This document shows, piece after piece, positions 1-25,410 of a stretch of 25,709 nucleotides of DNA (the first letter of the stretch is position 1; every line of letters begins with the position of its first letter). The notes below the pieces were generated by a model. The model saw nothing but the letters and a program-made list of their open reading frames with translations, was not told the origin of the DNA and ran no database searches. This DNA comes from Terriglobales bacterium (lineage in GTDB: Bacteria; Bacillota; Clostridia; Oscillospirales; Feifaniaceae), in contig DATMXT010000237.1 in NCBI GenBank assembly GCA_035561375.1, positions 1 through 25,709 on the forward strand. The letters run 5' to 3'. The translations under genes were made by a program, and so were the position numbers.

Positions 1-44
1 CATTTTCTCGGCTCTCAGAAAGGCCCGAGAAAATATGTTGATAT

Positions 45-76
45 CCTTATTTTTTAAACACGTTTAAAAAATAAGG
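45..76. repeat. Perfect AT-rich palindrome (15-bp arms, 2-nt centre); possible terminator or operator
   Basis: ccttattttttaaac-ac-gtttaaaaaataagg. A second hairpin, attttctcgg...ccgagaaaat, lies at about 2-34. Confidence 0.6.
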
Positions 77-120
77 CCAATGATATGCCGCCCGCCAGCG
101 CGAATTCACTTCGCGCGGTC

Positions 121-401
121 AAGGCGGTGGCAGCCCTCTACACACCGCACCTGCCCACGGCCCTATTCGGTGCTTTTCGCCTTGCCCGCCTTGCTTTGCG
201 TAAGCATTGTGGCTTCTGCCGTGACGAAAATCCCTCGAATATTGCTCCGGGGCGGGTGCGAAGCAGTTTTGGCGGAGCGGATTTTCGTTTGGGCAAGTAT
301 TGCCGTACAGCGAATACTTGCTGTATTCGCAAGCGGTTTGCGTAAAGCCCCGGCGGAAATACGACCGCCAAAATCGGTGCGGGGAGGACTATCGCCACCT
401 T
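121..401 (+). mobile_element. MITE-like structured intergenic repeat, copy A
   Basis: 159-341 aligns ungapped to the reverse complement of 25175-25357 (29 mismatches in 183 nt, about 84%, hand count). Ends 121-138 and 384-401 form a degenerate inverted repeat (13/18 Watson-Crick, all mismatches transitions). Confidence 0.7.
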
Positions 402-595
402 AGGGCATCGCTCACCTGGCGGAAAACCCCCAGGTTTTTCGACACTTTGGCCGCCTCTTTTTGGGGCGGCGCATTTTTGTAAAAAGTGGCAGGGCGGATT
501 TTCAGCATCCGCGCATGAACACCCTTCGCCTGCGCATACTGTCATTGTGGCACGCAAACTGTTTTGACACATCGTCTTGATAAGCGCGTGCCCAC

Positions 596-8931: not shown

Positions 8932-8949
8932 GTGGGTATTCTCTCCTTA

Positions 8950-9220
8950 GCCTGACCGATATAATACAAACCCGTTTTGCAGAGCACGGGCCGCCCCGGA
9001 GACACGCTTGCGCCCCTTGAAGGGCGTCAGCCCATCTGTGGGCCGCTGTCTCGCTCCGAACCGGCCGGTGCCCTGCAAAATCTTCGACCTACGCGGGAGC
9101 GGATTTTTGTGTCAGGCGAAATTGAATGACGCCGGCGGGCTGACGCCCGCCAAAGAAAGAAATGAAGTCTGGCGCGAAAAGCAGCCCCACGTAGGCGGGT
9201 CCGGATTATATTGGTCAGGC
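8950..9220. mobile_element. 271-bp MITE with terminal inverted repeats and a TA target duplication, copy B
   Basis: gcctgaccgatataat (8950-8965) vs attatattggtcaggc (9205-9220): 15/16 inverted match. TA at 8948-8949 and 9221-9222. No credible ORF. Confidence 0.8.
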
Positions 9221-10257
9221 TAAAGCAGGTCGGCCAGTGAGCGCTGTACCCGGCCGGTGTAGCCCGTCGTCGTCCTGGCGTGTAAAAGGGAGGAGTAGAC
9301 CGACTCCTGCACCGCCTCGATGACGGCCCGGAACATGAGCTCCATCGCGTCCTCGGCCAGCTGCGGGGCGGGGGGCAGGATGTCCTTATCCTCGAAGTGG
9401 GGAATGGTGCGGGCCGTGGAAAAGCCTACGGCGATGTCGCCCGAGCCGTTTCCGGTGATGGTGCCGGTGCGGGCAAGCCCGCTCTGGGCCCTGCGGCACA
9501 TGCGTTTTAGCTGCCGGTCCGAGACCGGCGCGTCGGTGGCGAGGACGATGATGACCGAGCCCTTGTCCCGCTCGTTTAAACCGGCGAGCTTCTTGGCCAG
9601 CTCCCGCCCGATGTTGCCCGCAGCCGACGTGAAGTCCTTTGTCGAGCCGAAGTTGGTGACCAGCAGGGCGCCTACGGTGTAATCCTTGCCGTCGAGCCTC
9701 ACGACGCGGGAGGCCGAGCCCACGCCGCCCTTCATGTCGTAGCAGCACATGCCGGTTCCGGCGCCGACGGCCCCCTCCTCAAACTCCGGGCCGGCGGCGG
9801 CGATGGCCTCCGCCACATGCTCCTCTTTGACGTGCAGCGCCCGGATTTCGTTTAAGCTGCCGTCGTTGCACTCCATGACGACGCCGTTGACGGTGCCGGT
9901 CGTGGCGCCGATTTCGGGGTTCCCGGCCAGCATGTACCGGACGAGCCCCGTCAGGCAGGTGCCGACCGACAGGGTGTTCGTGATGACGAGGGGCGCTTCA
10001 ATGGTGCCGAGCTCCTCAACCTGAACAAGGCCGGCCGACTTGCCAAATCCGTTGATGACATGGCAGGCCGCCGGCACCTTATCGCGAAAGAGATTTCCGC
10101 CGTGGGGCAGGATGGCCGTCACGCCGGTGCGGGCGGTCCCTTCGGTCAGCGTGACCTGGCCGACCGCGACACCCTCTACGTCGGTGATGAGGTTTCGCCG
10201 CCCTCTCGGCAGCCCGGACATGTCGAACTGCGGGTATTTCTTTGCGTCGATACCCAT
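9220..10257 (-). CDS. DmpA/P1-family (S58) aminopeptidase
   Basis: ITDVEGVAVG, GVTAILP, NTLSVG, GAVGAGTG, KGGVGSAS, and the self-cleavage site G|SVIIVLATDAP. Confidence 0.9.
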   Translation of the reverse strand: MGIDAKKYPQFDMSGLPRGRRNLITDVEGVAVGQVTLTEGTARTGVTAILPHGGNLFRDKVPAACHVINGFGKSAGLVQVEELGTIEAPLVITNTLSVGTCLTGLVRYMLAGNPEIGATTGTVNGVVMECNDGSLNEIRALHVKEEHVAEAIAAAGPEFEEGAVGAGTGMCCYDMKGGVGSASRVVRLDGKDYTVGALLVTNFGSTKDFTSAAGNIGRELAKKLAGLNERDKGSVIIVLATDAPVSDRQLKRMCRRAQSGLARTGTITGNGSGDIAVGFSTARTIPHFEDKDILPPAPQLAEDAMELMFRAVIEAVQESVYSSLLHARTTTGYTGRVQRSLADLL

Positions 10258-25060: not shown

Positions 25061-25117
25061 TGACGGGGGGTGCCCCAAAAAAGGGCGCGGGGTGCAAAAT
25101 CTTCCCCCGCGCCCCTT

Positions 25118-25391
25118 GGCGGCGGGAACCCTCCCCACACCGGTTTTGGCGGGCGCATTTCCGCCCAGACTTCGGCAAACCGCTTGCGAATACAGCAAGT
25201 ATTCGCTGCTCGGTTTTACTCGTCTGAACGAAAATCCGCTCCGCCAAAACTGCCTTGCACCTGTCGGCGAGCAATATTCGAGGGATTTTCGTCACGGCGG
25301 ACACCGCTTTGCTGACGCAAAGCACGAACAACAAGGCGAAAAGCACCGAATAGGGCCGCCGACAGGCGGTGCGGGTTCTACTCCCGCCGCC
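25118..25391 (-). mobile_element. MITE-like structured intergenic repeat, copy C (inverted relative to copy A)
   Basis: About 84% identical to copy A over 183 nt. Perfect 10-bp terminal inverted repeat ggcggcggga / tcccgccgcc. Confidence 0.72.
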
Positions 25392-25410
25392 TTAGGTAAG
25401 GTGAACTACT

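Follow-up and report, generated by a model that had tools for sequence, protein, structure and literature searches.

Three intergenic repeats in an Oscillospirales genome are probably TA-duplicating foldback MITEs of one superfamily

The window, meaning the whole stretch of 25,709 nt that was analysed, is contig C237 of a 1.83-Mb metagenome-assembled genome (MAG; 332 contigs, 60.7% GC) that we refer to as G000. A preliminary description had recognized three intergenic elements in it, A, B, and C, with A and C about 84% identical. Our alignments agree with this, as A and C form an inverted pair with 83% identity over 192 nt when aligned without gaps and 78-82% identity over 245-286 nt with gaps. 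C lies on the strand opposite to A, and both belong to one ~278-bp repeat, designated F1, at ~80% identity. According to the gene calls, B is located within an operon, between the stop codon of an S58 peptidase gene and the ribosome-binding site (RBS) of a racemase gene. Copy C occupies a divergent intergenic region, 16 nt upstream of the cysK start codon (25411). The features of the three loci are listed below; R80 is a further repeat, and R1 is a covariance model for which only the right halves of 15 B elements were used.

36..121, + strand: left part of R80, an AT-rich palindrome with the hairpin GCGCGAA-TTCAC-TTCGCGC
122..400, + strand: F1 copy A, 279 nt, delimited by family alignments, flanked by CA (120-121) and TA (401-402)
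Ends of copy A: terminal inverted repeats AGGCGGTGGC.../...GCCACCT
401..446, + strand: right part of R80, GGGCATCGCTCACCTGGCGGAAAACCCCCAGGTTTTTCGACA, followed by a terminator-like hairpin at 450-470
8950..9220, + strand: B-family element, 271 nt, flanked by TA (8948-8949) and TA (9221-9222)
Ends of B: terminal inverted repeats of 26 nt, GCCTGACCGATATAATAC...
8969..9087, - strand: left module of B, a copy of the right module that is inverted and has diverged (R1, E 5.9e-9)
9081..9201, + strand: right module of B, GGGAGCGGATTTTTGTGTCAGGC ... GGCGGGC-TGA-CGCCCGCC ... GAAGTCTGGCGCGAAAAG (R1, 130.6 bits)
25118..25392, - strand: F1 copy C, 275 nt, with TA at 25393-25394 and a degenerate TT at 25116-25117
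274-285 (A), 9096-9107 (B), and 25231-25242 on the - strand (C): landmark GGAGCGGATTTT
9164-9172 (B): landmark GAAGTCTGG, 56 nt after GGAGCGGATTTT

Every landmark that had been described as shared by A, B, and C in the same order was located in the sequence. These include the hairpins gggc-gtca-gccc in B and gctttgc-gtca-gcaaagc in C (read on the minus strand), and an inner hairpin that occupies the same position with different sequence, gcgaatac/gtattcgc in A and C vs ggcgggc/gcccgcc in B. The inverted ends reported for all three elements were also recovered, as 28-nt arms with 86% complementarity in B (8947-8974 and 9196-9223) and as arms of ~27 nt in F1.

Several other features of the window were recorded near the elements. 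Upstream of an opuAC-type glycine-betaine transporter gene (800-1888) are two direct copies of the 26-nt sequence CTGCGTCCGSCTATGGTTCTTTTTTA (638-663 and 703-728), separated by 65 nt and 96% identical. On the minus strand, a GC-rich hairpin at 25075-25115, GGGCGCGGGG...CCCCGCGCCC, is followed by a T-run; it is positioned just downstream of C in the orientation of the element and upstream of a promoter-like site (25060-25032) of a minus-strand operon, and it was missed by a simple terminator scan. Synteny with the sister species G004 is broken at copy C (25116-25394), where the left flank continues G004 contig C58, while cysK, to the right of C, is found on G004 contig C60 behind a different gene. 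This break may represent a rearrangement at the element.

Comparison with related genomes showed that the elements insert and duplicate a TA. The site orthologous to that of B is empty, with a single TA, in the sister species G004 (C58) and G005 (C8): the empty G004 site reads ...CTCTCCT-TA-GAGTAAG..., and the window reads ...CTCTCCT-TA-[271 bp]-TA-AAGCAGG.... Copy A interrupts R80 at a TA or CA, giving GCGCGGTCA[element]TAGGGCATC in the window (GCGCGGT-CA-[A]-TA-GGGCATC), and more than 20 other contigs have its two flanks joined directly, as in the intact R80 sequence GCGCGGTTAGGGCACC. Most B copies carry TA on both sides, and TA flanks 10 of 15 left and 11 of 16 right F1 ends. Empty sites thus confirm that A, B, and C are members of a mobile element family, as had been proposed. 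In a few copies the flanks are inverted instead of direct (GTCA...TGAC at C157, TTTA...TAAA at L028), a pattern for which simple TA duplication offers no explanation. At a separate locus, L079 (Ga0099364_10041953), two abutting elements have one TTAA in common.

The interrupted repeat, R80, is ~130 nt long and more abundant than F1, with more than 30 matches, many of them at contig ends. Its parts are a perfect palindrome rich in AT and two hairpins, GCGCGAA-TTCAC-TTCGCGC and GAAAACC...GGTTTTTC. Downstream of each aligned R80 (seven intact copies, such as those at L077, G000:C27:9300-9750, and L078, plus the one in the window) stands a GC-rich terminator-like hairpin that is unique to that copy, and no Rfam family matched R80 at threshold. 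R80 is a hot spot for F1, as five F1 ends abut its TTAGGGCACC site. The F1 copy at L004 (G000:C145:6076-6457) has R80 right halves on both sides in inverted orientation, and these halves are closer to each other than to R80 copies elsewhere; the palindrome there appears to have been lengthened by copying of one flank. Orthology between copy A and G004:C40 was considered and rejected, since the similarity stops at the R80 borders and the two are therefore different loci.

Both families share one layout. F1 has ~27-nt terminal inverted repeats, seen in 18 copies, that enclose two long imperfect internal palindromes, and B repeats this arrangement with 28-nt terminal repeats. The outer ends differ, AGGCGGCGGG in F1 vs GCCTGACC in B, and the inner motif (A/T)AATC(C)GAACC is common to both. 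A third family from another genus (TA-AGGTGACAAGAGTAATCCGAACC) has terminal repeats that bridge those of F1 and B.

To relate the halves of these elements to one another, we relied on R1. In addition to the left half of B, R1 matched F1 copies with E values from 7e-9 to 5e-2 in 82 kb, including both halves of the F1 copy on C235 (7e-9 and 5e-8) and the right module of copy C at 25138-25258 on the minus strand (6e-5). The right half of A itself scored below threshold. R1 also matched the Oscillibacter variant (L051) and half-size elements that have a single module, at C27:1955-2072 (E 2e-7) and on C80. Since a model made from right halves of B finds the left half of B, the halves of F1, and monomers, this model makes F1 and B homologous and shows each ~275-bp element to consist of two ~120-nt hairpin modules joined as an inverted dimer. 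The earlier view that B is related to A and C, diverged in sequence but alike in architecture, therefore holds up under R1. Sequence profiles did not reveal this relationship, as neither the F1 nor the B nhmmer profile found the other family in 2 Mb and the covariance model alone did. Modules occur as monomers, inverted dimers, and tandem copies; in two metagenome contigs, L087 and L080, a single module is present as tandem direct copies. When single-stranded, an element can adopt a shape of two long hairpins, with its paired ends closing the structure.

About half of the F1 right ends resemble a tRNA T-arm with a 7-nt acceptor strand, GCGGG-TTCGACT-CCCGC-CACCTTA (e.g., L009, G000:C235:2503-2776), and reversing GGTTCGGATT gives AATCCGAACC, the inner motif shared by the terminal repeats. 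A tRNA-derived element was nevertheless rejected, as ARAGORN was negative at five loci and the motif is absent from half of the copies.

The preliminary description had also claimed that structure is retained while sequence changes, and the alignments support this. Among B elements, 38 of the 78 predicted pairs show double, pair-preserving changes, and across genera the inner hairpin takes four forms that all pair, GGCGGGC/GCCCGCC, GCTGGGC/GCCCAGC, GGTGGAC/GTCCACC, and GATGGGT/ACCCATC. We then scored 52 module instances against the structure stored with R1, in an alignment fitted to that model, the instances being mutually related and some rows being the reverse strand of the palindromic module. 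Under these conditions 91.6% of cells paired, compared to 68.0% with shuffled partners and 40-52% with slid partners. Changes on both sides affected 32 of the 34 pairs (24.8 when shuffled, 13-22 when slid), and the covariation score was 0.59 (0.20 when shuffled, at most 0.14 when slid). These caveats notwithstanding, the pairing potential predicted from the alignments is clearly maintained. The most conserved part of the element is the internal core rather than the outer terminal repeat, which is unusual if a transposase alone constrains the sequence.

A further prediction was that three copies in one contig implied many genome-wide. The elements are indeed multi-copy, but their number in the 1.83-Mb genome is modest, with 16 F1 matches to A (~10 full and 6 partial, some copies being interrupted by contig ends) and 4 matches to B. 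Elements range from 260 to 279 nt in length, with a median pairwise identity of 74% within F1 and 71% within B. Full-length F1 copies number 18 over the three species of the genus, all three of which contain both F1 and B; both families are scarce elsewhere in the GTDB family. An exact-pattern scan with the shared core extended the B type to at least seven further Oscillospiraceae MAGs, which come from human, goat, and buffalo gut, and also detected, in an Oscillibacter MAG, an F1-like element whose ends differ. Using R1, we found the ~120-nt module in 17 of 151 sampled Oscillospirales genomes, spread over 8 of 30 families, with at most 10 copies per genome.

Two of the genomes call for separate comment. 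G004 bears the public title 'Candidatus Acidoferrum sp. SMAG_U13168', yet it belongs to the same genus as our MAG, with synteny and 91-96% nucleotide identity, so its taxon label is probably wrong. In G076, from another genus, one such element is part of a ~540-nt non-coding composite present in at least four copies with 96-99% identity (C10:54000-68500, L095; C8, L096; C9, L097), which suggests recent spread of the composite unit. The 97-99% identical repeats of this genome were considered as an insertion sequence (IS), a possibility ruled out by the non-coding nature of the ~540-nt composite.

We searched for an enzyme that could move the elements and for longer copies with the same ends. 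PF13358 (IS630-type DDE_3) gave no matches in the three genomes of the genus, one of which is in only 8 contigs, while control genomes did give matches, and PF01609 (IS4/IS5-type DDE_Tnp_1) was absent from all three. PF01797 (Y1_Tnp, HUH) was absent from G000 and G005, both of which carry copies; one PF01797 and one PF00665 (rve) match were present in G004 only, neither with an element adjacent. These four families, DDE_3, DDE_Tnp_1, Y1_Tnp, and rve, are the ones that the search covered. All pairs of B terminal repeats in the genus were ~275 bp apart, with no longer copy among them. An order-wide scan for terminal repeats returned mostly single matches and was discounted, as a reversed-pattern control matched ~12 genomes. 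No longer element with the same ends was found in plasmids and phages by BLAST or in IMG/VR by pattern scan, and the metagenome and genome loci that were fetched contained short elements only. The longer copies with a transposase, RAYT, or reverse transcriptase between the same ends, which the preliminary description suggested looking for, were thus not encountered in these searches.

The conserved pairing could be taken to mean that the module is chiefly a functional structured RNA, either a small RNA (sRNA) or a cis-acting mRNA element, with mobility secondary. Such an RNA would fit the strong compensatory changes and an unpaired core that is highly conserved across genera. It would also fit the folding of the consensus sequences, which is better on the (+) strand (the orientation of A) than on the (-) strand, at -94 vs -80 for B and -85 vs -68 for F1; the difference gives some hint of a functional form that is single-stranded. 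The helix UUUUUGUGUCAGGC/GCCUGGCGCGAAAA of the core has conserved U-G pairs, in agreement with this, but where a helix is predicted on both strands the counts of G-U and A-C are equal (24 vs 18 and 29 vs 33), so the strand bias is weak; the raw count of 157 G-U vs 42 A-C was set aside as a strand signal because it is inflated by the folding program. Many B copies adjoin an RBS or stop codon and must therefore be co-transcribed. The orientation of the elements relative to genes is nonetheless mixed, with copies in divergent, convergent, and co-directional intergenic regions, and orthologous F1 copies at G000:C21:2382-2659 (L002) and G004:C74 (L027) are oppositely oriented. At C222 (L008, G000:C222:2796-3071), the 5' half of the copy is inverted between internal repeat arms; judged from sequence, this copy and the C21/L027 pair point to recombination between inverted repeats. 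Neither A nor C contains a sigma-70-like promoter or an intrinsic-terminator-like site, which together with the mixed orientation argues against an sRNA gene. No reading frame is open across copies, and the ORF over A has no Pfam match. Rfam yielded no gathering-score match in the whole window and only noise at E <= 10 for A and B and at E <= 1 for the C27 and C80 monomers, consistent with the earlier failure to place the elements in a named Rfam family. With terminal repeats and a TA duplication, which are features of transposons, also counting against it, we consider a primarily RNA-based role quite unlikely. The mixed orientation, the lack of a promoter or terminator in A and C, and the weak G-U bias likewise give no support to the earlier proposal that the elements act as structured RNA or single-stranded DNA (ssDNA).

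Movement as folded ssDNA recognized by its structure, in the manner of REPIN/RAYT systems, IS200/IS605 PATEs, or attC sites, appears similarly improbable. The inverted hairpin dimer resembles the inverted REP doublets known as REPINs, conservation across families is greater for structure than for the sequence of the outer ends, and some palindromic flanks and the slight strand bias in folding could be accommodated. Against this, the Y1/HUH enzyme is missing from two copy-bearing genomes and occurs once in the third, one TA at empty sites becomes two at filled sites whereas HUH elements have neither a duplication nor long terminal repeats, and the terminal repeats have an inner motif that is conserved, as a site bound by a protein would be. 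It is also conceivable, but very improbable, that the elements are inert palindromes decaying after inverted duplication, with no selection on structure. Copies have diverged to the median identities given above, several are truncated or rearranged, and no transposase is present, all of which would suit decay. Decay should break pairs, however, and families that are ~55-75% identical still pair in 91.6% of cells, pairs changed on both sides far exceed both controls, and pairing in the inner hairpin remains perfect through four changes of sequence.

Collectively, these findings make it probable that A, B, and C are TA-duplicating foldback miniature inverted-repeat transposable elements (MITEs) of one Oscillospirales superfamily. 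They have terminal repeats, a target duplication with a corresponding empty site, small size, multiple copies, and no internal transposase, while an autonomous element with matching ends was not found, a lack that they have in common with several accepted MITE families such as Correia. The superfamily is unnamed and new, and a full-text literature search for MITEs in Oscillospiraceae found no paper on them; the kind of element is ordinary. The combination of terminal inverted repeats and a TA duplication is characteristic of cut-and-paste transposition by IS630/Tc1-mariner elements. For an origin from this group, the TA duplication is in place and DDE_3 is absent from the host. MITEs are usually taken to be IS-derived, and the claim that the elements are something other than decayed IS fragments therefore lacks demonstration; their anatomy, with terminal inverted repeats and TA duplication, is that of classical MITEs.

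In the mechanism that we envisage, the elements would have moved by cut and paste, mobilized in trans by a TA-specific DDE transposase of the IS630/Tc1-mariner type, an enzyme that the three genomes lack. The hairpin would be kept because foldback transposition needs its shape, through an RNA-based route, or both. In the RNA-based route, co-transcribed copies could fold into compact hairpins that are harmless, stabilize the mRNA, or insulate, as has been proposed for ERIC and Correia elements. It is possible, though unlikely, that the hairpin module is instead a functional single-stranded unit recognized by shape by an enzyme or host factor. The module core GGAGCGGAUUUUYGU-UCAGGC with its covarying inner hairpin would then define a structure-based mobile or regulatory class, comparable to attC sites or REPINs instead of to a common MITE moved by a DDE enzyme. 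If true, this would account for the stronger conservation of the core relative to the outer ends and for the absence of the transposase families that were searched.

Interpreted as foldback MITEs, the elements can be compared with several known systems. Correia elements of Neisseria (CREE/NEMIS) are non-coding, intergenic, and often co-transcribed, with ~26-bp terminal repeats, a TA duplication, and long hairpins. To our knowledge, they have no cognate transposase. Like the present family, they are small, orphan, TA-duplicating foldback MITEs; they differ in being ~104-157 bp long and present in hundreds of copies with IHF sites and promoters, compared to ~275 bp, 4-20 copies per genome, and an inverted-dimer structure here. 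This likeness rests on architecture, and sequence similarity is not expected. RUP elements of Streptococcus pneumoniae have terminal repeats and a TA duplication and are moved in trans by an IS630-family transposase. Their parent, IS630-Spn1, is identifiable, whereas no DDE_3 was found in the three genomes of the present genus. The bcr1 repeat of the Bacillus cereus group is MITE-like, with a conserved predicted RNA structure and compensatory changes. It is a Firmicute repeat like the present one, but is ~155 bp long, with a TTTAT duplication and unrelated sequence.

In REPINs, an inverted hairpin pair is the replicating entity, as the dimer may be here, but REPINs are ~100 bp long, make no duplication of their target, and need a RAYT (Y1) gene in the same genome. 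The TA duplication and the absence of PF01797 from G000 and G005 do not fit a REPIN/RAYT system. IS200/IS605 PATEs have subterminal hairpins without terminal repeats, insert strand-specifically 3' of a 4-5-nt target, and go with TnpA or TnpB in the genome. The symmetric terminal repeats, the TA on both sides, and the lack of Y1_Tnp in the same two genomes do not fit an IS200/IS605 PATE or omega-RNA. TA-flanked bacterial MITEs, including ERIC, Correia, and RUP, have been reviewed, and ERIC/IRU of Enterobacteriaceae are described as TA-flanked imperfect palindromes in transcribed intergenic regions (PMC3184786). ERIC RNA hairpins affect mRNA stability and their structure is conserved through substitutions, to which the present elements may be likened by analogy. 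ERIC is a 127-bp single foldback of Gammaproteobacteria, in contrast to the ~275-bp dimer described here.

This work delimits a previously undescribed repeat superfamily of uncultured gut Oscillospiraceae, with its boundaries, TA target, and architecture, and supplies a covariance model fit for use. Assemblies of MAGs break at the family, as several copies lie at contig ends. Its elements insert exactly at stop-codon and RBS junctions within operons and mediate local inversions, and for annotators they are a reason against calling riboswitches or sRNAs at such regions. If it is true that the conserved core acts as RNA or ssDNA, the superfamily would represent a new class of structured element in a major gut clade.
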